From a virus: a DNA stretch of 64,000 bases. The DNA is taken from the IMG/VR virus record IMGVR_UViG_3300043028_000007, positions 3,899 through 67,898 of that record; one strand, 5' to 3'. Made by a program: the position numbers and the translations under genes. The notes under the pieces are model-generated. The model did no database searches. It saw only the letters and a list, made by a program, of their open reading frames with translations, and had not been told where the DNA came from. This document shows, in pieces, positions 6,644 through 56,224 of this stretch. Position 1 is the stretch's first letter, and every line of letters starts with the position of its first letter.

Positions 6644-6676
6644 AATAAGATGGGAGGCAGAATCTCCCATCTTATT
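6644..6676. terminator. Bidirectional intrinsic terminator
   Basis: 13-bp perfect stem AATAAGATGGGAG/CTCCCATCTTATT between convergent genes. Confidence 0.8.
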
Positions 6677-7256
6677 ATGCTGCATCTACCATTACTAATA
6701 CTTCTTTATCTATTATTACTAATACTTCTTTTTCATAATGATAGATTTTTCTATCGTCTTTATTTTTGCGGCAATATTTTCTTAAGAGACTTTCATCTCT
6801 TAAGTTATTTGTAGGAATCGAGAATTCACAAGATTCCATATTAGAAATATGGATATAGTCCATGCTTCTAACATCTACATATGCCCAGAAATATCTAGGC
6901 ATTATGTTTCTGATGATTCTCTTTACAGAAGAATCATATTCTCCTGATTCTTCTATAGAAGTTTCTTCATCAGAAACTCTTAGAATATACATACCTTTAG
7001 AAGTATGTACCCTAAGAATTACAATATCACTATTGATAGTAAGATTATAATAAGGAGTGATTCCGCCACCCCAACTGTAACATATATTACCAAACGAATC
7101 TATATGTCTGGTAATATATATGTTTGTGCGAAGCTCAGGATTTACTTTTTCCCAAGCTTCGATGACAGTAAGGTTCTCAATCTTATGAATAAGATCAAGA
7201 ACGAATTTATCTTTGAACCCAGAAGGGTTCTTTTTAATGAATATACTTTCTCTCAT
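6675..7256 (-). CDS. Hypothetical protein (early gene)
   Basis: 193-aa ORF with GGAGG RBS, downstream of the early promoter-like motif at 7301-7318. Confidence 0.75.
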   Translation of the reverse strand: MRESIFIKKNPSGFKDKFVLDLIHKIENLTVIEAWEKVNPELRTNIYITRHIDSFGNICYSWGGGITPYYNLTINSDIVILRVHTSKGMYILRVSDEETSIEESGEYDSSVKRIIRNIMPRYFWAYVDVRSMDYIHISNMESCEFSIPTNNLRDESLLRKYCRKNKDDRKIYHYEKEVLVIIDKEVLVMVDAA

Positions 7257-46833: not shown

Positions 46834-47676
46834 ATGTCTAGTAATAAAAACCCTAAAGAACATGTAGAAAGAGGAAAGATAATAAAACAATACTTTTCTT
46901 CTTTAACAGCTAGAAAGACTTCTTTGATGTACGTTGGTATACTTAAGAACAATCAGATCATTTTAGCTAATCTTGATCCAGATAAAATGGTTAGGTATTG
47001 TGAAGCATCTTTATCATTACATATACTTTCTATAAAGAAGAAACATATACAGAAATATGTTAAAGAAATAATAGACTATTTAGGTATTCCATCTGGACCA
47101 TACGTTATTTGTATAAATGACTATATTTCCTATTTGAATAAAATCAAATTCGATCTTAATGTACCATCTACTATTAAAAGTAATGATTCAGGTATTTATT
47201 ATTATACGGCAGATAATGATAAAAAGAAAGTATTAGCATACCCCATAGTCATGTATTCCGTAGTCTCTTTCTTAACCAATATATCTGACAACATAGATAA
47301 TATCCTAAAGTATATAAACGATGAAGAAGATTTGATTGTTTATAATAGAATCAATTTATTGGATAAGAATAATGGGACAGGAGTTTTTAAAGTACAGATA
47401 CATTTAGATAGTTTTAAAGATAAGGACGGGAACAACACATTCGATGTTAAAGGAAAGAAAACAATAGATATCAATATGTTTGATGGTTTAGAAACTATAT
47501 CGGTCAAAGAGTTTATTAAGAAGTTTAAAGAAGAAAATAGTTCTTTAGACTTAATAGCTTGTTCTTTAAAAGGAACAAGTTGTATTGAGTATATATCAGT
47601 ATATGAAGATAACAACATAATGGCAATAAGTACAAGACCACACAATAGACTATATATCAAAAAGAAAGGGAATTGA
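46834..47676 (+). CDS. Hypothetical protein
   Basis: 280-aa ORF with AAGGA RBS. First gene of the operon that ends with the chaperonin and 132-aa gene. Confidence 0.75.
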   Translation: MSSNKNPKEHVERGKIIKQYFSSLTARKTSLMYVGILKNNQIILANLDPDKMVRYCEASLSLHILSIKKKHIQKYVKEIIDYLGIPSGPYVICINDYISYLNKIKFDLNVPSTIKSNDSGIYYYTADNDKKKVLAYPIVMYSVVSFLTNISDNIDNILKYINDEEDLIVYNRINLLDKNNGTGVFKVQIHLDSFKDKDGNNTFDVKGKKTIDINMFDGLETISVKEFIKKFKEENSSLDLIACSLKGTSCIEYISVYEDNNIMAISTRPHNRLYIKKKGN

Positions 47677-49151
47677 TCATGGTGGATAAGATAGATACAG
47701 AAGAATATATGGATGATGAAAATATAAATGAAAGCCTAGAAGAAGATACGGAACAAGAGGAAGAAGAACAGAAGGAACTCACGGAGAAAGAAGTTCTTGA
47801 AGAGTATAAGAAAGCCGTAAAAGATAGTCATACCGATTCATTGCAGTTCGATTCAAGAGAAGATACTTTAAATAAGTTAAATGTCCTCAAAAACATATAT
47901 GGAGAAAAAGAATTTAATAAAAGAGCAGAAGAAGTTGGTACAGATGTTTATATTCTAGTCAATAGAATAAAAGCATACTCATCAGCAGACGAATTCGAAA
48001 GAGATGCTTTAGATAAAAAGGACACCAATTTATTAAGTACGAAATATGTCAACGATAAATATAAATTCAGCGACGTTGGTAAGAATCCAAATAAGGATTA
48101 TAAAGGAGCTGTATTTAGTGGTAAAGAAGCTCTTCTTGTAATCAATGCAAAAAATAAATCTACTAGAAAAGTGTGGTTATATAACAGTGGGATTTATGTT
48201 ATTTTAAGAGGCCCAACACTTACAGAACTCAATACCACATACAACAGGATTATCGATGAGATAAATAGTTATCAGTATGAATTTGGTATGCATTATTATC
48301 TATTTAATGACTTTGTTATTAAAGAATCCATAGTGGATTTGATATATAAACTTATTACAGATAGTAACTACTCTGGCTGGTCTAGAAATAAAGCTATTTT
48401 AGATATAATCAAACTACCCGATTATAGAGTTTTATTGCATGCTATTGGTTCTCTTATGTATCAGGACAAATACCCATATTATTTCGCATGTACTAATACA
48501 GAGTTGGCTTCTGGTAAACCATGTACTTATACCGAATCAGTGGAAATAGATCTTAGAAAAATAAGATACAATAACTATTCGATGATACCAGAAGAAGCTA
48601 TGGAGATACTTTATAGAACAGGTAATAGAACCAAAGAAGAACTTATCGAATATCAGGAACTACTTAAACTAACTAAGTATATTGAAATTACAGAAGATTA
48701 TAGAGGTATGACTAAAATACCTTCTATTAGAGAATATATGGAATTTGGTAAGAAGTTTAATAAATCGATTATTGAAGCCATACATCTAGATGATGACAAA
48801 AAGATCGAGCAATATATTAAATATAACTATTATAAAGTATTTACTATTTGGCTAGATTATGTCGAAATGATGAATGAAGATACAGTTAGTGCTAAATTTG
48901 CCGATGAAGAAACTATAGCTAATCTATTGGATATAGTTCAGTTAGAAGATTCAGAATTTGGCGATAGAATAACAGAATATATTCGAGATGTAAGTATTTC
49001 CCATATAGCTATTCCATTCAATGGTTGTCCTTCTTGCAAGTATATTCCAGAATATAGCAAGAACGGATATATTACGTTCGATCCGCAATCGCATTTTTTC
49101 TCACAATCCGTAATGAGGTTAGCCCTGAATGTTTGGAACCAGAAGCTATAG
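47673..49151 (+). CDS. Putative tail/baseplate assembly chaperone with C-terminal CxxC
   Basis: 492 aa with acidic N-terminus. Motifs LYNSGIYVILRGPT, YYFACTN...PCTY and HIAIPFNGCPSC...FDPQSHFF. The function is inferred. Confidence 0.5.
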   Translation: MIMVDKIDTEEYMDDENINESLEEDTEQEEEEQKELTEKEVLEEYKKAVKDSHTDSLQFDSREDTLNKLNVLKNIYGEKEFNKRAEEVGTDVYILVNRIKAYSSADEFERDALDKKDTNLLSTKYVNDKYKFSDVGKNPNKDYKGAVFSGKEALLVINAKNKSTRKVWLYNSGIYVILRGPTLTELNTTYNRIIDEINSYQYEFGMHYYLFNDFVIKESIVDLIYKLITDSNYSGWSRNKAILDIIKLPDYRVLLHAIGSLMYQDKYPYYFACTNTELASGKPCTYTESVEIDLRKIRYNNYSMIPEEAMEILYRTGNRTKEELIEYQELLKLTKYIEITEDYRGMTKIPSIREYMEFGKKFNKSIIEAIHLDDDKKIEQYIKYNYYKVFTIWLDYVEMMNEDTVSAKFADEETIANLLDIVQLEDSEFGDRITEYIRDVSISHIAIPFNGCPSCKYIPEYSKNGYITFDPQSHFFSQSVMRLALNVWNQKL

Positions 49152-49639
49152 AACGATTCTTTGAAAGGTTCGACATTCTTATTACGGAAGTATTAAAAGG
49201 TGTAGAGGGCATAGATAGAGATAGAGCCATCAAATACTTTAACCAGATAGGGTATAAAGAAGAGGAAGTACCAGAAAGTGCCCTATCTGGTTTTAATGAA
49301 GTTAAATATATCCCAAAGAAAAAAGTAAGTAACAATAAGTTAGAAAATCTTATCTATAGTAGTAATAGGGACATATTCTTAAAGGAAGTGGCTAATACAT
49401 TATTTCTTACTGAGTGGTATGAAAGATTTGGACTAGATTTGCAACAGACAATGGATATGTCTTATGACGAATATAATACGATGAAAGAATATTTGCAGTA
49501 TATAACTGAAATTATAGAACAGAAAAAGAAAGAACTTATAGCCGAGGAAGAGGCCAAACAGAAAAAAGAAGGAGCTCAGCAACATGTCCGAGTACCATCA
49601 GCTAAGACTATTAAAAAACAACGATGGGGTAACCAATAG
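49133..49639 (+). CDS. Small protein resembling the C-terminal extension of tail assembly chaperones; possibly made only by -1 frameshift
   Basis: TTG start with no ATG for over 100 codons. Motif ERFGLDLQQTMDMSYDEY. The frame is open back to the slippery T TTT TTC at 49094-49100. Confidence 0.55.
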   Translation: MEPEAIERFFERFDILITEVLKGVEGIDRDRAIKYFNQIGYKEEEVPESALSGFNEVKYIPKKKVSNNKLENLIYSSNRDIFLKEVANTLFLTEWYERFGLDLQQTMDMSYDEYNTMKEYLQYITEIIEQKKKELIAEEEAKQKKEGAQQHVRVPSAKTIKKQRWGNQ

Positions 49640-51395
49640 TGATTCAGCTACATCATTATATCAGTCTATAGTAGATACCTGCGATGAAATAATAGAGGTT
49701 CTTACAGATCATTGTGGTAAATATGCTCTGAATTGCTTATTGATAGAAGATAGTGGGATGAAATCTAATAATGCTAATATGTTTACTACAGATGGAATAA
49801 CTATTTTGGATTATCTGGAATATGTTAGTCCATTACAAACATATATAAAACACTTGATAGCATATATTGGAAGACGAGTAGAAACTGCCGCCGGAGATGG
49901 TACAACTACATCGATGATGATATCGGCAAGTATACTTAAATATTTCTTTCAAAAAGTTATTTCAGAACAACCCTTAACTAAGAAAAATAGACACGAGCTA
50001 ATCGATAAGTTTAAGGCAGATATTTCTCAATTAAGAACATCCCTGGGTCACTATAGGCTTACTGTTTTTGAAGTAGCTGAAAAATTAAATAAAGACCCAA
50101 GAGAAATACAGTCTGAGATAGCATATATACAAAGTATGATAATAAGTAAGAGGAATAAAGAACTATCGGAGTGCATAAAAGAAATTTTCCAATATACTCC
50201 CATAGAGATAAACGATACCTTTGAAAGAGAAATATCTAGAATAGAAACAAAAGAAAAATTCTCTGTCAAATATCCTGATGAAGACCTTACTTGTAACGTA
50301 GTTATTACCTCGAATATAGAGTATAATAAAAAACTTGGTACAGAATTCGAACAAGATAATTGTGATCTTATAGTTTCCTCCGCCTTACTAACAAAAGATT
50401 ATAAGGACTATACTTTACTATATGAATATATAAAAAATAGAACCAAACCAGTGTTGGTACTATATAAGGAAATGAGTTCGGATGCAGTAATAGAACTTAA
50501 TTCATTTAATACAAGAACAGGTCATCCTGTCATATTGGCTAAATATGCTTCTGGTAGAAATATAAGTAGTACAGAACCGATAATACTTCAGACAATACCA
50601 GTAGCTTCTGGAAAAAAATCACTACATAGAGTAGACAATATAGAAGAAGCTATTATAACTAACGTTAAATGCCATATAATACATGGTAAATTGTCTATAT
50701 CGAATACATATGCAATCGATGAAAAGACCAAATTACATATGTCATATATAAACCCAGGAAGCGATGAGAATTACGATAAGTTTCTAAAGGAATTGAAACA
50801 AACTATACACGATTTCAAACATGTACATAAAGTAGCAGATAATGAACTTATAGACGAGTATGTGACTTCTTTGAGATATATGGTATCTGCTAGAACTCCT
50901 AGACTAGGTATTGGTGGTAACTCAATAGATGTAATGGAATCTAACGCAATTGTTAACGATGTATTAGGTGCTATCACTTGTTCTCTATCTAAAGGTTTTC
51001 TTATAGATGGAAATTTGACTACGCTGAAATATAGCAATAGCGATTTCATAACAAAAGCATTTAACGATCTACTTAAGGTAATTCACAATATAACTGATAA
51101 AATGGAAGATACTTTTAATGAAATAGTCGATAATTATCAGTTTGAAAGTGGAGATAAATTTGACAGTAAGTATATGGACTTAAGGTTCTGGGAACATTAT
51201 TGTAAAACGTCTGTAACTAAAGATGGTGCCATTAACAAATTTATAATAGATGGAAAATTGGATCATGACGCCATAATACATCCTTATGTACTTTATATAG
51301 AACTTCTTAACAGAATAGAAGAAGTTATAGTTAAGTTAATGGCAACTGAGAGAGTAATAGTTCCCGGCACTGCTAATGATAAAGGAGGTAAGTGA
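49584..51395 (+). CDS. groEL: Divergent GroEL-like chaperonin
   Basis: Motifs FTTDGITIL, ETAAGDGTTTS and DVLGAITCSLSKGFLIDG. 603 aa. GAAGGAG RBS. Confidence 0.8.
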   Translation: MSEYHQLRLLKNNDGVTNSDSATSLYQSIVDTCDEIIEVLTDHCGKYALNCLLIEDSGMKSNNANMFTTDGITILDYLEYVSPLQTYIKHLIAYIGRRVETAAGDGTTTSMMISASILKYFFQKVISEQPLTKKNRHELIDKFKADISQLRTSLGHYRLTVFEVAEKLNKDPREIQSEIAYIQSMIISKRNKELSECIKEIFQYTPIEINDTFEREISRIETKEKFSVKYPDEDLTCNVVITSNIEYNKKLGTEFEQDNCDLIVSSALLTKDYKDYTLLYEYIKNRTKPVLVLYKEMSSDAVIELNSFNTRTGHPVILAKYASGRNISSTEPIILQTIPVASGKKSLHRVDNIEEAIITNVKCHIIHGKLSISNTYAIDEKTKLHMSYINPGSDENYDKFLKELKQTIHDFKHVHKVADNELIDEYVTSLRYMVSARTPRLGIGGNSIDVMESNAIVNDVLGAITCSLSKGFLIDGNLTTLKYSNSDFITKAFNDLLKVIHNITDKMEDTFNEIVDNYQFESGDKFDSKYMDLRFWEHYCKTSVTKDGAINKFIIDGKLDHDAIIHPYVLYIELLNRIEEVIVKLMATERVIVPGTANDKGGK

Positions 51396-51790
51396 TGTCC
51401 GATACAATCGTAATCGATAGTATAGTCAAATTCGATAGCTTACATACAGATGATGAGACTATGTGGAAAGGTAAGATCATTGGTAAAGTAAAATACGATA
51501 TAGCCAAGTCTTACCCACAAGTAGTACCGTATTATATGGATATTAAGAAGAATAATCCAGAAATACCTTCTATAGAAAATTTAGAATACTTTATTATCAA
51601 ATTAGATGACGATGGTACCGGGAGTGACATATATAGAGCATTTGCAGAAGAATGGATAGTTCCCGGATCATTAATTACAATAGATGTGTCTAGTAAAAGA
51701 ACTATAGATATATATGGAATTTCTGAAACAGAGTTTGCTGATATAGTTGAAATGATTAAGATAAGAGGTTATGTCGTAGAGACTAATTAA
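51392..51790 (+). CDS. Small conserved-type jumbo-phage protein (possible beta-barrel/SH3-like)
   Basis: 132 aa with GGAGG RBS. Motifs WKGKIIG.V and YFIIKL...AFAEEWI. Confidence 0.6.
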   Translation: MMSDTIVIDSIVKFDSLHTDDETMWKGKIIGKVKYDIAKSYPQVVPYYMDIKKNNPEIPSIENLEYFIIKLDDDGTGSDIYRAFAEEWIVPGSLITIDVSSKRTIDIYGISETEFADIVEMIKIRGYVVETN

Positions 51791-51794
51791 CAAA

Positions 51795-52295
51795 AAAATA
51801 AGATAATCGGAGAAACAAGTAAGGACCTGTTACAAGTTCTCCGATTTCTTAACCCATTGAAACTGCTATAGCCTAGTACTATAGCAATATAATTATTATA
51901 CCAATACCCATTATCCACCGCCTTGTCAAATAGTCAATACCTTGACCAGGCATGGAAATACATATTGATTTTTCTTGACTTCTGTAAAAAATCAAAACAG
52001 ACCCCTTTTCTATACCTGGTCTCTATAACCAGTGTTGATAAATTAATAAATAGCTTTTGCCTAATTAATTTATCAGAAAAGTTGTCTTCTATCTTTAAAA
52101 CAGAAGATAAGAGAATATGTGGGTAAGCGTATTCTCTTTTCTATACTTCGTCTATTATCTATTAGGTCCTTAGACGAAGCAAGGCTAACTGGACTCAGCT
52201 TGCTAGGGGCTCCAGTTACCCCTTTCGATATGATCTCCATGAAGACTCCTTTCTCTATTTGGAGATGGTACTATAAACACTTTCTAACTTAGCCT
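51795..52295 (-). ncRNA. Candidate ~500-nt highly structured non-coding RNA
   Basis: Lies between an early promoter (52302-52319) and a terminator (51806-51846). No ORF of 60 aa or more on the transcribed strand. At least nine local stems of 5-12 bp plus crossing complementarities. Confidence 0.55.
51806..51846. terminator. Bidirectional terminator hairpin
   Basis: AATCGGAGAA/TTCTCCGATT 10-bp stem, followed on the minus strand by a U-rich tract. Confidence 0.7.
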
Positions 52296-52301
52296 ACATA
52301 A

Positions 52302-52319
52302 ATAATATATATTTTAAAT
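52302..52319 (-). promoter_or_regulatory. phiKZ-type early promoter
   Basis: Minus strand ATTTAAAATATATATTAT, a perfect consensus copy with no conventional gene downstream. Confidence 0.75.
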
Positions 52320-52330
52320 CAAACGAACAA

Positions 52331-52366
52331 CATATACAGTTAGGGCTAAGGCCCTAACTGTATATG
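52331..52366. terminator. Intrinsic terminator hairpin
   Basis: 16-bp perfect stem CATATACAGTTAGGGC/GCCCTAACTGTATATG. Confidence 0.8.
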
Positions 52367-52380
52367 TATATTTATATTAT

Positions 52381-54018
52381 TTAATCAAGAAATGATTGTA
52401 TTTTAGTAGCTTGATAATAAACTTTATTATTAGTTAGGTTTTCTAATTCTTTAAATAATTTTTCATAATCTTCAGCTAACCTACCTGTAGTAGCTATACT
52501 AAGTAAATTGGCTGGTAATGATAAAGGTATGAGATAATCAGTGACTACATTGATCTTTCTACTTATTTGCTTTCTTTTCTTTTCTATTATAGCCATTATC
52601 TTTTCGGTATCCGCAAGATAAGTATTTCTTATCTGTGGATCTAGGTCTTTATTTTTAAATAAAGCCATATTGTTTTGAGCCATTCTTTGTAATCTGGCAT
52701 ATATGTCTTCGTATGTAGTAATAGGGATATTGTTTGTACCTAAAGAATTTTCTATAAAACTTATGCCACCTAAAGTCGTTTTCAATAACCAAGAATGATG
52801 GTTAGCTTTATGAAAAGCTACCGCACCCATTTTCGACGCATTTTTTAATATCATAAAATCCATTAGTTTATTTAATCCGGAAGCAAGATGAGCTCCCATA
52901 CCATGTCTAGAAACATATTCATCAGCTCTTCTTTCTATGTTGTACTTATTTCTATTGGAAAGAGTTTCATCACTTCTCTTATCTTTAGAAGTTATACGAA
53001 AATAATCTTCTCCTTTATCAAAAATTGGCACAAGTGTTTTGATTGTTAGAAATACTATCATAATAAAAATATATATAAAAGCATTAGCTAACAAAATTAC
53101 TATGGTAGATAATAAGTTATCAATATGTTTTAGTGGAGTATTATCTGGTATAAATCTTAAAGCATCTACTATATTAAATAAGAATCTTCTAATAGCAGAG
53201 ATATCTTTTTTAGTGACTATATATTTACCTTCTTTAATATCGTCTTCCATAGTTTTTAGTTTATCGTCTAATTTTTTAGATATTTCACCTACGTCTTCTT
53301 TCTTAATAGACCTTACCATATACTTGGTTAAGTCAGTAAAATAGACATACTTAGACAAGTTTTCTATAGAAGAAATGACATGGCCTACTTCATGTAATAT
53401 AATGGCAGTCATTTCCTCATAAGTTGCTTTGGCTGCGCCGGGTATTAGTTTGTCCATAAAATATATACAGCCTAGATCTAGATATAGAGTCCAATTGAAT
53501 CTAGATAAAGTATTTAATGTCTCATCTTTAAACTGACCACTAGACACATCTAATGATCCCATTACATCCAAGTAATCATCTATAGTAGTTTTCTTATAAG
53601 CACCCATGTCAGATAAAGTACTAGTTTCTAATTCATCAAAGAAAGTAGTTCTTTCAGGTTTTTTGTAACTGACTTCTCCAGAACTATGTCTCATTATTTC
53701 TGTAAAGAAGTTATTGCTATCCTTATCGTCTAAAGATACAGCAAAGAAACCAAATGAAAATGTTGGACTAATGGTTCTTATACTAGACAATCTCATATTG
53801 AGATTGTTTTTAAATATTTCTGTTAGTTGTTTAGATATGGTCTTATCAAAGAAAATTTTAAATTCATTATAAAACGTAACAGTAGTCTTATCTTTGGTCC
53901 AATTACGTTTTATATACTGTTCACCTACACTTAGAGCGAGGACTATTTCCTCAGCCAATTTGCTTTTCTTTTTGAAATCTATAGCCTCTAAGCCGGGTAT
54001 GTCTACAAGGTTAATCAT
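52381..54018 (-). CDS. Head-associated protein with zincin (HExxH) metallopeptidase-like motif; paralog of 54030-55583
   Basis: IILHEVGH and ERRADEYVSRHGMG motifs. N-terminal PGLEAI resembles the phiKZ-type head protease site (S/A/G-x-E). Confidence 0.7.
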   Translation of the reverse strand: MINLVDIPGLEAIDFKKKSKLAEEIVLALSVGEQYIKRNWTKDKTTVTFYNEFKIFFDKTISKQLTEIFKNNLNMRLSSIRTISPTFSFGFFAVSLDDKDSNNFFTEIMRHSSGEVSYKKPERTTFFDELETSTLSDMGAYKKTTIDDYLDVMGSLDVSSGQFKDETLNTLSRFNWTLYLDLGCIYFMDKLIPGAAKATYEEMTAIILHEVGHVISSIENLSKYVYFTDLTKYMVRSIKKEDVGEISKKLDDKLKTMEDDIKEGKYIVTKKDISAIRRFLFNIVDALRFIPDNTPLKHIDNLLSTIVILLANAFIYIFIMIVFLTIKTLVPIFDKGEDYFRITSKDKRSDETLSNRNKYNIERRADEYVSRHGMGAHLASGLNKLMDFMILKNASKMGAVAFHKANHHSWLLKTTLGGISFIENSLGTNNIPITTYEDIYARLQRMAQNNMALFKNKDLDPQIRNTYLADTEKIMAIIEKKRKQISRKINVVTDYLIPLSLPANLLSIATTGRLAEDYEKLFKELENLTNNKVYYQATKIQSFLD

Positions 54019-54029
54019 GACTGTCCTTT

Positions 54030-55583
54030 CTATAAAAATGATTGTATTTTAGCAGCTTGATAATAAGCTTTGTTGTTTATAAGATTCTCTGCCTCTTTGA
54101 ATAATTTTTCATAATCGTATGGAAGGTTGCCTGTCGATAGAATAGAGTAGATATTTGTTGGAGTAAAAATCCCTATCATCTTAGATAATGTATCTAGCAT
54201 AGATTTACCTATACCACCTTTTAATTGTTTAATCGTATACAACAACTCTTCCGTTTTCTTTATCTGATCATCTCTTACAGTAGGAGATAGATTCCGGTCT
54301 TTAAATATAGACATGTTGTTTTGTAATAACCTTTCTATTCTAGACACTACATCTTCATAGACGATGGTAAAATTATCTGCTCTGATTCCTAAGGCTTTAA
54401 ATAGATACTTTAATGAGACTAAATATATCTTACTTACAAAGTTAGCATGGGATGCGTATTTGTAACCCAATAACGACTGAGGAGTCAATATCTCACTATA
54501 ACCATTTAACTTAAGTAATGCATCTGCAAGATAAGGACCCATACCATGCATAGATACATATTCATCAGCTAATCTTTCTATGTAATAATTGTTTCTCCTA
54601 CTATTAGTTTCATCGTTCTTCTTATAACCATCTTTAAGTATTGTTATGTCATATAAAGTAGTTACTATTTTAAAAGATACAAAAAGACTAGCTGCTAGTA
54701 ATAAAAACACTATAAGAATAAATAACCTAAAAGCAATAGATATTAATTTGGTTACTATTCTTAAAGGTAATCCTATTATCTTTCTAGATTTGGTTGTTTC
54801 GACAGATTTGATAAAATTAATTATAAAGTTTTGTAAAGTCACTGTAGTTTTATTACTTATAGTTTTAATATGTCTTAATCCACTTACTAAGCTCAATATA
54901 GTTTTCTTATTTTTGACTACTTCATCTACGATATCTTCTTTTTCTAAGTTTACTAAAAAATTTCTAAGTAATTCGGTCTTATATATGACATCTGTACTAT
55001 GTTCTAATATAGTAATTGGATGCCCTATTTCATGTAGTATTATAGTAGTCAATTCTTCGGTAGTATAGTTCTTTACGCCTATAAGGACATCTTTACCAAA
55101 AAATGCTGTTACGAGATCTATAGTAAGGACATATTCGTTATTATAAAAAGGGTTGTTCGGAGATATTGTCAAAGTTCCTGTCTTAAGATCTACGTGTTCT
55201 TCATTAGATAACATTTCTAGCACATCTTTGAATTTAGATTTCTTATAACTCATTTGTCCTGAAGAACTACCTATACCGTCAAACAATAATCCCTTTTCTG
55301 TTTTGTCAGTCATAGCTATAGAAAAAACATTAGAAGGACCTTCTTTGTATAATCCTTTTACTTTCTTTATTTTGAGTTTAGTATTTTTGTAGATAATATC
55401 TATTAAAGTATCTTCTTGTTTTTCAAATTGTTTTCCAAAAGCATTTATAGTTTTTTCTATGTCCTCGTTCTCTTCTTTTAAGTCCTTAGCTATCCGTATC
55501 TGTTCCGTGAAAAAATAGACCAATTCCTTAGCTAATGAGCTATGCCCTTGGAAGCCTATTTTTTCTAATCCTATATTAATCAT
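54030..55583 (-). CDS. Head-associated protein with zincin (HExxH) metallopeptidase-like motif; paralog of 52381-54018
   Basis: IILHEIGH and ERLADEYVSMHGMG motifs. N-terminal IGLEKI. Confidence 0.7.
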   Translation of the reverse strand: MINIGLEKIGFQGHSSLAKELVYFFTEQIRIAKDLKEENEDIEKTINAFGKQFEKQEDTLIDIIYKNTKLKIKKVKGLYKEGPSNVFSIAMTDKTEKGLLFDGIGSSSGQMSYKKSKFKDVLEMLSNEEHVDLKTGTLTISPNNPFYNNEYVLTIDLVTAFFGKDVLIGVKNYTTEELTTIILHEIGHPITILEHSTDVIYKTELLRNFLVNLEKEDIVDEVVKNKKTILSLVSGLRHIKTISNKTTVTLQNFIINFIKSVETTKSRKIIGLPLRIVTKLISIAFRLFILIVFLLLAASLFVSFKIVTTLYDITILKDGYKKNDETNSRRNNYYIERLADEYVSMHGMGPYLADALLKLNGYSEILTPQSLLGYKYASHANFVSKIYLVSLKYLFKALGIRADNFTIVYEDVVSRIERLLQNNMSIFKDRNLSPTVRDDQIKKTEELLYTIKQLKGGIGKSMLDTLSKMIGIFTPTNIYSILSTGNLPYDYEKLFKEAENLINNKAYYQAAKIQSFL

Positions 55584-55671: not shown

Positions 55672-56163
55672 TTATTTTGTTTTAGGAGGATTTTTAGGTT
55701 TTTCCTCTCCTCCATCTTCTTTACTTGGTTTATTCTTTTCGATAACGGAACTCACTTCTTTACTAAGTACTGTTATTGTTTCTTTGATTTCTTCATCGGA
55801 CTTTTCATCCGAGGCAAGATCTTTCCAAAGTTCTTTTATGAAACTGGCAAGATCTTCTCTAGTCTTTTTATCAAAAACTTTTCCGAGTCCATCAGAATCG
55901 TTTTCAATATGATCTTCAAATGCAGACCACATGATTTTAGAAAGTCTAACAATACGACTTTCCAAATCATTATCATTTGTAGAAGAGGAATAAACTTCTT
56001 CCTCTTCCTCTTTTTCACTATGAAAGAGGAGATCTTCCATCCTCATAGTGAATTCTTTGTATGCAGCTTGAGCCGAATCAAGCTTATCATATCCTTCTCG
56101 ACGAGCGTTTAAATATTCTTCACCGGTTGTTTCTTTACTCCTGTCTCTCCATACGATAGTCAT
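55672..56163 (-). CDS. Acidic hypothetical protein (early gene)
   Basis: 163 aa with AAAGGAG RBS, downstream of the early promoter at 56207-56224. Confidence 0.75.
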   Translation of the reverse strand: MTIVWRDRSKETTGEEYLNARREGYDKLDSAQAAYKEFTMRMEDLLFHSEKEEEEEVYSSSTNDNDLESRIVRLSKIMWSAFEDHIENDSDGLGKVFDKKTREDLASFIKELWKDLASDEKSDEEIKETITVLSKEVSSVIEKNKPSKEDGGEEKPKNPPKTK

Positions 56164-56206: not shown

Positions 56207-56224
56207 ATAATATATATTTAAAAT
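56207..56224 (-). promoter_or_regulatory. phiKZ-type early promoter
   Basis: Minus strand ATTTTAAATATATATTAT. Confidence 0.7.

Follow-up and report, generated by a model that had tools for sequence, protein, structure and literature searches.

RNAIII of Staphylococcus aureus is an RNA of about 514 nucleotides (nt) that folds into 14 stem-loops and encodes the 26-aa delta-haemolysin, and phage morons are autonomous promoter-gene-terminator cassettes that are inserted between conserved genes. To our knowledge, very few RNAs have been documented in jumbo phages with their own RNA polymerases, and these are mostly shorter than 250 nt. Dual-function RNAs, including RNAIII, have been reviewed (PMC12612679, PMC12310071), and two large ornate RNAs, ROOL (RF03087) and GOLLD (RF01998), are known from phages and prophages (PMC12286853). 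Small RNAs (sRNAs) have been reported in phiKZ-like phages, such as sRNA005 of 201phi2-1 and an sRNA upstream of gp182 in phiKZ (PMC11512511, PMC10914365). These were filtered to lengths below 250 nt and derive mostly from 5' untranslated regions (PMC11512511), and one predicted phiKZ sRNA could not be confirmed (PMC8244752). Here we describe a putative transcription unit of about 500 nt on the minus strand of a 64,000-nt stretch of DNA (hereafter, the window) that comprises bases 3899-67898 of the 150-kb IMG/VR virus record IMGVR_UViG_3300043028_000007, a record judged to be about half complete. A first-pass annotation of the window had proposed that the unit, at positions 51795-52295, encodes a new, large, structured, early-expressed non-coding RNA.

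Our tentative reading is an autonomous, moron-like unit for a structured early RNA with little coding content. At 52302-52319 (minus strand), a phiKZ-type early promoter would start an RNA of about 500 nt that ends at an intrinsic terminator (51803-51846), and this RNA would form a bead-string of ~11 stem-loops whose pairing is maintained at the RNA level. Coding would be minimal, comprising a 55-codon orphan open reading frame (ORF) behind a Shine-Dalgarno (SD) sequence half-buried in the first hairpin (H1) and a 10-codon micro-ORF whose stop codon would lie inside a covarying hairpin. The hairpin array itself would then be the selected feature, making the RNA dual-function-like. Such an RNA would probably be made early and its micro-ORF translated, and the stable array may bind or titrate a protein partner, or ribosomes via several AAGG/GGAG motifs, beyond any role in stabilizing the message.

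The anatomy of the unit bears out the first-pass annotation, which had described a perfect early-promoter copy pointing into the largest gap between long ORFs in the window and a terminator with a U-tract at the end of that gap. The motif ATTTAAAATATATATTAT is present as a perfect copy at 52302-52319 on the minus strand, and the gap into which it points (51791-52380; 590 nt) is the largest in the window between ORFs of at least 90 aa. The distance from promoter to terminator is ~500 nt. The window contains seven copies of the 18-nt motif at two or fewer mismatches, where 0.48 would be expected, and all seven are on the minus strand; in the 150-kb record, 17 of 18 promoter-like copies are on that strand. 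The motif agrees with strings published for the early promoters of phiKZ, 201phi2-1, and OBP, TTTRARR..TATATTAC/T (PMC7058600, Table 2). It is AT-rich, contains the TATATTAC/T core, and is repeated before genes with a consistent leader length, as would be expected of a phiKZ-type early promoter served by a virion RNA polymerase. Transcription probably starts a few bases past the promoter, at ~52296-52300. In a crude scan, an SD and start codon were present within 85 nt of 14 of the 18 promoter-like sites; at the other promoter copies the SD-start distance is 41-85 nt, and in the unit it is 61 nt. The first-pass annotation had set this copy apart from those that precede protein genes. The copy is indeed perfect, but the DNA downstream of it is not free of signals, since an SD-ATG pair sits 61 nt on.

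At the other end of the unit, a two-part, GC-containing stem-loop (stem 51803-51846; whole element 51795-51846) is predicted on the minus strand directly before the U-tract AUCUUAUUUUUUU, and the U7 tract on the minus-strand side indicates that the terminator is oriented for this unit. A simple terminator scanner missed the element because of its loop rule. A sigma-70-like promoter inside the unit (51910-51937) was considered and rejected, as both hexamers are destroyed in a relative (L017, described below). As a separate observation, 17 of the 18 early-promoter-like sites in the record lie on the minus strand and the cumulative GC skew declines almost monotonically, suggesting that transcription of the sequenced half of the genome is strongly unidirectional.

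The 501-nt minus-strand RNA has a minimum free energy (MFE) of -159.4 kcal/mol, compared to -112.8 +/- 6.2 kcal/mol in dinucleotide shuffles (z -7.58), so that it folds far better than shuffled sequence. In a 300-nt sliding fold of the whole window, segments in the gap take 5th and 7th place among 425 on the minus strand. Compared to its own shuffles, the plus strand of the unit folds about equally well (z -7.29), and 20 of 170 pairs are G·U in the minus-strand MFE structure versus 6 of 145 in that of the plus strand. The nine hairpins and four crossing pairings previously listed for the region are all (13 of 13) perfect Watson-Crick helices. The predicted fold is a linear series of ~11 local stem-loops and contains no multi-way junctions.

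Relatives of the locus were collected from metagenomes by synteny, with the order being a chaperonin gene, a gene of ~132 aa, the slot occupied by the unit in the window, and genes for HExxH proteins. One relative, L002, shares 95.6% nucleotide identity overall with the window. L017 (3300036718, SRR11804027) shares 74% identity in the chaperonin and 64% in the 131-aa protein, and its contig ends inside the gap. Chaperonin identity falls to 42% in L003 and to 36% in L004 and L005, and more distant loci were also recovered. Seven further contigs (L011, L013, L014, L016, and L019-L021) have the same gap sequence as the window, leaving only three haplotypes: those of the window, L002, and L017. 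Scans of IMG/VR with single proteins and a 20-mer from the gap yielded no match, and scans by alignment yielded only distant loci that lack the element. The collection of the same locus from relatives, as the first-pass annotation had proposed, succeeded for the synteny, but the element itself was recovered only in the three haplotypes, and it is confined to one phage species group.

To evaluate selection on RNA structure, substitutions were mapped on the centroid structure, which was predicted from one of the three haplotypes, and compared to a null in which the same base changes were placed at random. The L002 RNA differs at 6.4% of gap positions, folds with a z of -7.32, and retains the same hairpin series. 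Its 25 substitutions break three minus-strand pairs where 7.8 +/- 1.9 were expected (P 0.009), and the 16 substitutions in L017 likewise break three where 5.7 +/- 1.6 were expected (P 0.08). The same test on the plus-strand fold gave P 0.35 for L002 and 0.29 for L017. Two compensatory changes were detected, one in H7 in L002 and one in H10 in L017, and another eight changes, in the 3' domain, are compatible with wobble pairing only on the minus strand. In the terminator, all three haplotypes are 100% identical across the stem core, the inner hairpin, the loop, and the U-tract; the L017 differences nearest to these elements are at the outer edge and linker (51847-51848) and then at 51859-51860. 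The two compensatory changes and the strand-specific preservation of pairs may reflect the covariation that had been proposed as a check in homologs, but they come from three haplotypes only.

Individual hairpins, all predicted by folding of the minus strand, differ in how they accommodate these changes. H1 (52233-52266) is a 7-bp stem, AUCUCCA/UGGAGAU, with the SD AAAGGAG in its loop and the AUG in its 3' arm; its closing A-U pair becomes G·U in L002 and is thereby kept on the minus strand only. The H2 region (52182-52222) offers competing pairings, namely GGGG/CCCC, UAACUGGA/UCCAGUUA, and UUAGCCU with the AGGCUAA of the 5' end (52289-52295), and one pair of its 8-bp stem is broken and another converted to G·U in L002. 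A pseudoknot-like arrangement of GGGG/CCCC and the 8-bp stem had been proposed here (52186-52222). Both pairings are perfect, but they are probably mutually exclusive alternatives, as there is no linker between the first arms of the two stems. H3 (52146-52179), a 9-bp stem that is extendable to 11 bp, with a 16-nt loop, is unchanged in L002. H4 (52109-52138) is a 9-bp stem with a C-rich loop that contains UACCCA and carries one change in L002, and H5 (52085-52107) is a 6-bp stem. H6 (52036-52075) is a 12-bp stem of A and U only, the first three bases of which are the UGA stop of the 55-codon ORF.

The remaining hairpins lie in the 3' half. H7 (52016-52032) is a 5-bp stem in which a U-A pair is replaced by C-G in L002, the compensatory change noted above. 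A long-range helix, GACCAGG/CCUGGUC (51944-52021), is predicted to enclose H8 (51974-51996), a G·U-rich stem of 10 bp. This segment holds most of the L002 differences; U·G/U-A exchanges preserve the pairing in H8, and the flank of the helix is remodelled by two indels, of 3 nt and 1 nt. The micro-ORF ends inside H10 (51863-51887), a stem of 9 to 11 bp that takes in its final two codons and stop codon. In L017, one G-C pair of H10 is replaced by U-A (compensatory), a U·G by C-G, and a U-A by U·G, and its loop carries a 2-nt indel in both L002 and L017.

Comparison of the haplotypes with their flanks suggests that the unit behaves as a module. In 60-nt bins, L017 is 58-85% identical to the window in the chaperonin and 131-aa genes and 93-100% identical from the stop codon on. 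The 3' 257 nt are 93% identical, compared to ~73% in the flanking genes, and this jump at the stop codon suggests that the unit travels, or is conserved, as a module. Eighteen differences have accumulated in the L017 cassette. The divergence of L002 is also a mosaic: 0% in the 132-aa gene, 1% in the chaperonin gene, 9.3% in the HExxH gene (19% at third positions), and 16% in the spacer that holds the promoter and terminator. Such mosaic divergence among co-occurring haplotypes (window 47652-55502 versus L002, and 50302-52051 versus L017) may be taken as evidence of frequent recombination in the phage population.

The slot itself is hypervariable among relatives. In L003, it comprises two promoter copies that drive genes for proteins of 95 aa and 170 aa, the latter with an HExxH-type motif, and after these a micro-ORF and a terminator. 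In L004 and L005, it comprises a gene for a cyclic-phosphate processing receiver (cREC_REC) protein followed by another promoter copy, and in L009 it is 56 nt long. The 170-aa protein of L003 (5643-6155, minus strand) has its own promoter copy and a metallopeptidase-like motif, HEQAH..GH, and matched no Pfam or PHROG family significantly.

After the L004/L005 promoter copy, a stretch of 386 nt (L005 8415-8800, minus strand; identical in L004) is ORF-free, has a G+C content of 45% versus a contig average of 31%, folds with a z of -6.5, and ends in a terminator-like hairpin. It lies just downstream of the cREC_REC gene and upstream of a 30-aa ORF. No match was detected in Rfam or among deposited phages, and the stretch is unrelated in sequence to the RNA of the window. 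As a candidate for a compact structured non-coding RNA, it looks better than the unit in the window. Outside the window, position 130637-131123 of the G000 contig (identical to L022 538-1024, minus strand) also holds an early-promoter copy followed by ~470 nt of ORF-free sequence with a G+C content of 40% and then by an SD-led gene. That stretch is not unusually structured (z -0.9), is unrelated to the L005 RNA, and had no Rfam or tRNA match.

The coding content of the unit was evaluated separately for its two ORFs. The micro-ORF (51879-51911, minus strand) would encode MGIGIIIILL in ten codons (ATG GGT ATT GGT ATA ATA ATT ATA TTG CTA, then TAG, from 51911 to 51879) and is preceded by an SD-like GGUGGA. 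In L017, the peptide is identical despite three nucleotide changes, all of which are synonymous, and a TGA two codons upstream closes the frame so that only the ten codons are kept. In L002, a possible TTG-started form of 38 codons is out of frame. At the same place in L003, directly before the terminator and between proteins that are ~40% identical to those of the window, the peptide MGISIIIVLL is encoded with four synonymous third-position changes. The match between the window and L003 is not significant alone (BLAST, E 0.24), and the position and substitution pattern strengthen it; together they are suggestive of conservation at the peptide level. The equivalent place in L004/L005 is occupied by a peptide of 30 aa that is hydrophobic by composition (MGLGLGVLAAGVKLVATVAVVVVTNILTKK), begins with MGLGLG, and has a good SD; it resembles the micro-ORF in ~4 residues, which is not significant.

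The micro-ORF resembles a leader peptide yet has nothing to attenuate, and it is too short for a membrane toxin. A leader-peptide attenuator was considered, given an Ile/Leu-rich ORF, a hairpin over its stop codon, and a terminator, and was rejected because no regulated gene lies downstream: on the minus strand, all that follows the unit is antisense to the convergent 132-aa gene. By eye, no antiterminator pairing was apparent.

The 55-codon ORF (52073-52240, minus strand) begins with a canonical start, the SD AAAGGAG followed after 6 nt by ATG, at the usual distance from the promoter. Its codon usage scores 0.027 per codon as log-odds, whereas in-frame 55-codon pieces of 38 long genes in the window score 0.246 +/- 0.088 on average. 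A score this low was found in 0.8% of real 55-codon pieces and one this high in 40% of spurious ORFs, whereas other small genes in the window score 0.20-0.36. No frame in the gap has a genic codon score, which argues against a recent pseudogene. Several other frames in the same 500 nt, on both strands, contain open stretches of 65-77 codons, so that the length of 55 codons carries no weight. The only homolog identified in 5.8 billion protein clusters and 1.84 billion representatives was the L002 copy, no match was detected in Pfam or PHROG, and recognition by a protein language model (Atlas) was 1853, below the level of 2300 that is reached by 91% of proteins of known families. The ORF differs from its L002 copy by three changes that are non-synonymous and two that are synonymous. 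Of the L002 changes, five fall within codons 5-9 and one in the remaining 46 codons, where ~9 would be expected from the third-position divergence of the neighbouring gene. This paucity of change in codons 10-55 appears to reflect conservation at the nucleotide rather than the protein level, or else recombination. The 55-codon ORF is therefore doubtful as a protein gene, the evidence being mostly negative.

Two other origins of this ORF were considered. Homology to the 95-aa protein of L003 was not accepted, as the match comprises seven residues (E 0.04) in a two-sequence comparison. A pseudogene was rejected, as tblastn with the slot proteins of the relatives (95 aa, 170 aa, the 117-aa cREC_REC protein, and 30 aa) matched only the 10-aa micro-ORF. 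The first-pass view that the region lacks ordinary coding thus survives in that no frame is genic, but not in the sense of a functionally ORF-free region, given the SD-ATG and the peptide-conserved 10-codon ORF.

Several observations weigh against a minimally coding RNA that is selected for its structure. Rates of change are similar at paired and unpaired sites, indels in L002 disrupt one flank of a helix, and with only three haplotypes the covariation is thin. Most of the conservation in L017 may be attributed to recent cassette exchange rather than to selection alone; recombination is favoured for part of it because the terminator loop and linkers are identical too and because the divergence of L002 is a mosaic. 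The predicted fold has no long-range architecture, being a string of local hairpins rather than ornate, and in this it is unlike ROOL, GOLLD, and tmRNA, which the first-pass annotation had named as large structured RNAs that occur in phages. Among distant relatives, the syntenic slot is occupied by small protein genes in L003 and by an unrelated structured RNA in L004/L005, or it is nearly empty; a relative with 82% identity in the 131-aa protein (SRR25904989) seems to have only 223 nt there. Strong hairpins are also a property of some early transcripts in this phage, coding or not. The mRNA of a 193-aa gene (6675-7256, minus strand; folded over 6700-7200) has a z of -14.75, tops the 300-nt sliding fold, and has a codon score of 0.21. 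The gene for an acidic early protein of 163 aa (55672-56163, minus strand), directly after a promoter copy at 56207-56224, has a z of -4.6, and the 300-nt segment at 55801-56100 within it ranks 6th of 425. Like the unit in the gap, both are short early units that run from promoter to terminator. With genuine genes reaching such values, a high density of hairpins does not identify an RNA as non-coding in this phage. A general rule that early transcripts are all hairpin-rich proved false, as five of seven promoter-proximal regions fold like average sequence.

These observations bear most directly on the possibility that the unit is simply an early message of the ordinary kind, encoding the 55-aa orphan, a hydrophobic-tailed peptide of 10 to 38 aa, or both of these very small proteins, with hairpins that act at the level of the message in stability, avoidance of RNases or defence, or translational control. 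We consider this possible but doubtful. The canonical SD and ATG, 61 nt from the promoter and within the 41-85 nt of the other copies, argue that the unit is, or was, a message; the 55-codon ORF is open in both haplotypes in which it was compared and is called by a gene finder in L002; and the micro-ORF peptide is kept through synonymous changes. The folding of the two early genes points the same way, as does the L003 slot, where promoter-driven 95-aa and 170-aa genes precede the same micro-ORF and terminator. Moreover, the early promoters of 201phi2-1 all precede genes for hypothetical proteins (PMC11512511). However, the codon usage of the 55-codon ORF is that of a spurious ORF rather than that of the other small genes, the ORF has no homolog outside the species, and its length is matched or exceeded in other frames. 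The single change in codons 10-55 of L002 is not what would be expected of a protein gene, and the longer forms of the 3' peptide are broken, by an out-of-frame start in L002 and by the TGA in L017.

The toxin mRNAs of hok, tisB, and zorO have long inhibitory leaders, and the 350-nt hairpin array could by analogy be the leader of a type-I-toxin-like or membrane-peptide message. The 30-aa hydrophobic peptide of L004/L005, which has a good SD behind a long structured untranslated stretch, fits such a toxin in length and composition; the peptides of the window and L003 begin alike (MGIG and MGIS) and are both hydrophobic; and the predicted fold places the start of the micro-ORF in a paired region. 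Yet ~9 hydrophobic residues in ten codons are too few to span a membrane, for which ~19 aa or more would be needed, and it is the short form that is conserved in the window, L002, L017, and L003. The similarity to the L005 peptide is not significant, and neither an antitoxin RNA nor an antisense promoter was detected, the single sigma-70-like site (51910-51937) being the one that is destroyed in L017. We therefore regard this explanation as quite improbable. An element that acts as DNA (an insulator of the two convergent operons, an origin of replication, or a site of packaging or recombination) or the remnant of a gene in decay would account for the similar z of the two strands, the location between convergent operons, and the variability of the slot. 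It would leave unexplained why pair preservation is specific to the minus strand, why the minus strand has 20 G·U pairs and the plus strand 6, and why the unit has its own promoter and a minus-oriented terminator. The region has no GC-skew extremum, iterons, or repeat families, no frame has the genic codon usage that would mark a recent pseudogene, and random decay would not create perfect stems of 7 to 12 bp. This makes such an element very improbable. It is in our view unlikely that the array is a genuinely non-coding early RNA by which an RNase, a defence sensor, or an RNA-binding factor of the host is titrated, made from a slot that is a hot spot for unrelated promoter-driven structured early RNAs. 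If this were the case, the RNA of the window and the 386-nt, GC-rich type of L004/L005 would be kept by different jumbo phages, and the same pressure on early RNAs in the cytoplasm would lie behind the z of -14.75 within a gene.

No known RNA family was identified that could account for the unit. The whole window had no match in Rfam 15 at the gathering score, including to ROOL (RF03087), GOLLD (RF01998), tmRNA, RNase P, group I and II introns, 6S, and CsrB/RsmZ, and ARAGORN identified no tRNA or tmRNA gene in it, in agreement with the first-pass statement that hallmarks of tmRNA, RNase P, and introns could not be seen. At E up to 10, the region 51600-52500 yielded only miRNA-type noise on the neighbouring terminator hairpin, and no Rfam match was detected in L002-L006. 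No match to the DNA of the gap or to the chaperonin (tblastn included) was found among 50,697 deposited phage records. Within the 150-kb record the unit is single-copy: a search for paralogs, extended complementarity, or antisense targets found nothing better than E 0.9. The novelty of the element with respect to Rfam therefore stands. Of the larger proposal, a new early-expressed structured RNA, the discrete unit, its folding, and its strand-specific pairs are retained, but its description as a purely non-coding RNA is not, given the SD-ATG, the micro-ORF, and genes that fold alike. We tentatively regard the feature as a phage-encoded structured or dual-function RNA of no known Rfam family.

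The window is AT-rich (31% G+C) and belongs to an uncultured jumbo-phage lineage that has been met only in metagenomes, among them JGI 3300005068, 3300036941, and 3300036718 and SRR11802726 with related runs. The lineage encodes a GroEL-like chaperonin (phrog_5725, with a weak match to Cpn60_TCP1), and the tandem HExxH proteins belong to phrog_2767. The gap is flanked by the ends of the 132-aa gene on the plus strand and of a 545-aa HExxH gene on the minus strand, which form the ends of convergent operons. The 5' boundary of the unit is the predicted terminator hairpin of the 545-aa HExxH gene (52330-52367, minus strand), a perfect stem of 17 bp, and this stem carries a double compensatory change in L002 (AC..GT to GT..AC). 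Upstream of the chaperonin, ORFs of 492 aa and 168 aa overlap at 49133-49151, an arrangement that is kept in L002, L003, and L011. No GC-skew extremum was detected at the gap, and a search of the region for iterons, repeat families, and CRISPR-like units returned only weak two-copy matches. The sequence GUAUAGAAAAG, which is common to the 3' side of two hairpins, is not enriched. The 193-aa gene at 6675-7256 has a good SD, a promoter variant upstream, and a terminator downstream, and it matched neither Pfam nor PHROG. Along its mRNA, perfect hairpins of 10 to 17 bp follow one another, with a bias to the minus strand (18 G·U pairs).

That this early gene folds far more strongly than the unit, and that a distant relative has an unrelated structured RNA in its slot, suggests that some early transcripts of this phage lineage are selected for RNA structure. 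What the unit in the gap would add depends on its nature. If it proved to be only a message for orphan micro-proteins, it would be ordinary. If it is instead a 0.5-kb early hairpin-array RNA with tiny translated ORFs, it would be among the first phage counterparts of dual-function RNAs like RNAIII.

Each of the described systems shares part of this anatomy. Like ROOL and GOLLD, the RNA is phage-borne, around 500 nt or more in length, and without a known protein product. Unlike them, it has no covariance-model match at E up to 10, is predicted to form simple hairpins rather than multi-way junctions and conserved long-range pairs, and has a very narrow distribution. With the sRNAs of phiKZ-type phages it shares a jumbo-phage host genome, phiKZ-type early promoters, and a short promoter-to-terminator unit, but at ~500 nt it lies alone between convergent operons and carries SD-ATG signals. 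As in morons, a self-contained cassette occupies a hypervariable slot between conserved operons, and identity jumps from ~73% to 93% at the cassette boundary in L017, although the payload is not a recognizable protein gene. RNAIII differs in its origin, in having no sequence or Rfam relation to the unit, and in that the phage unit is known from sequence alone and has no base-pairing target in the phage genome. By analogy of form, however, dual-function RNAs such as RNAIII appear to be the closest: both RNAs are ~0.5 kb long, consist of linear, local stem-loops between their own promoter and terminator, and carry a tiny ORF with an SD in an otherwise non-coding structured RNA.

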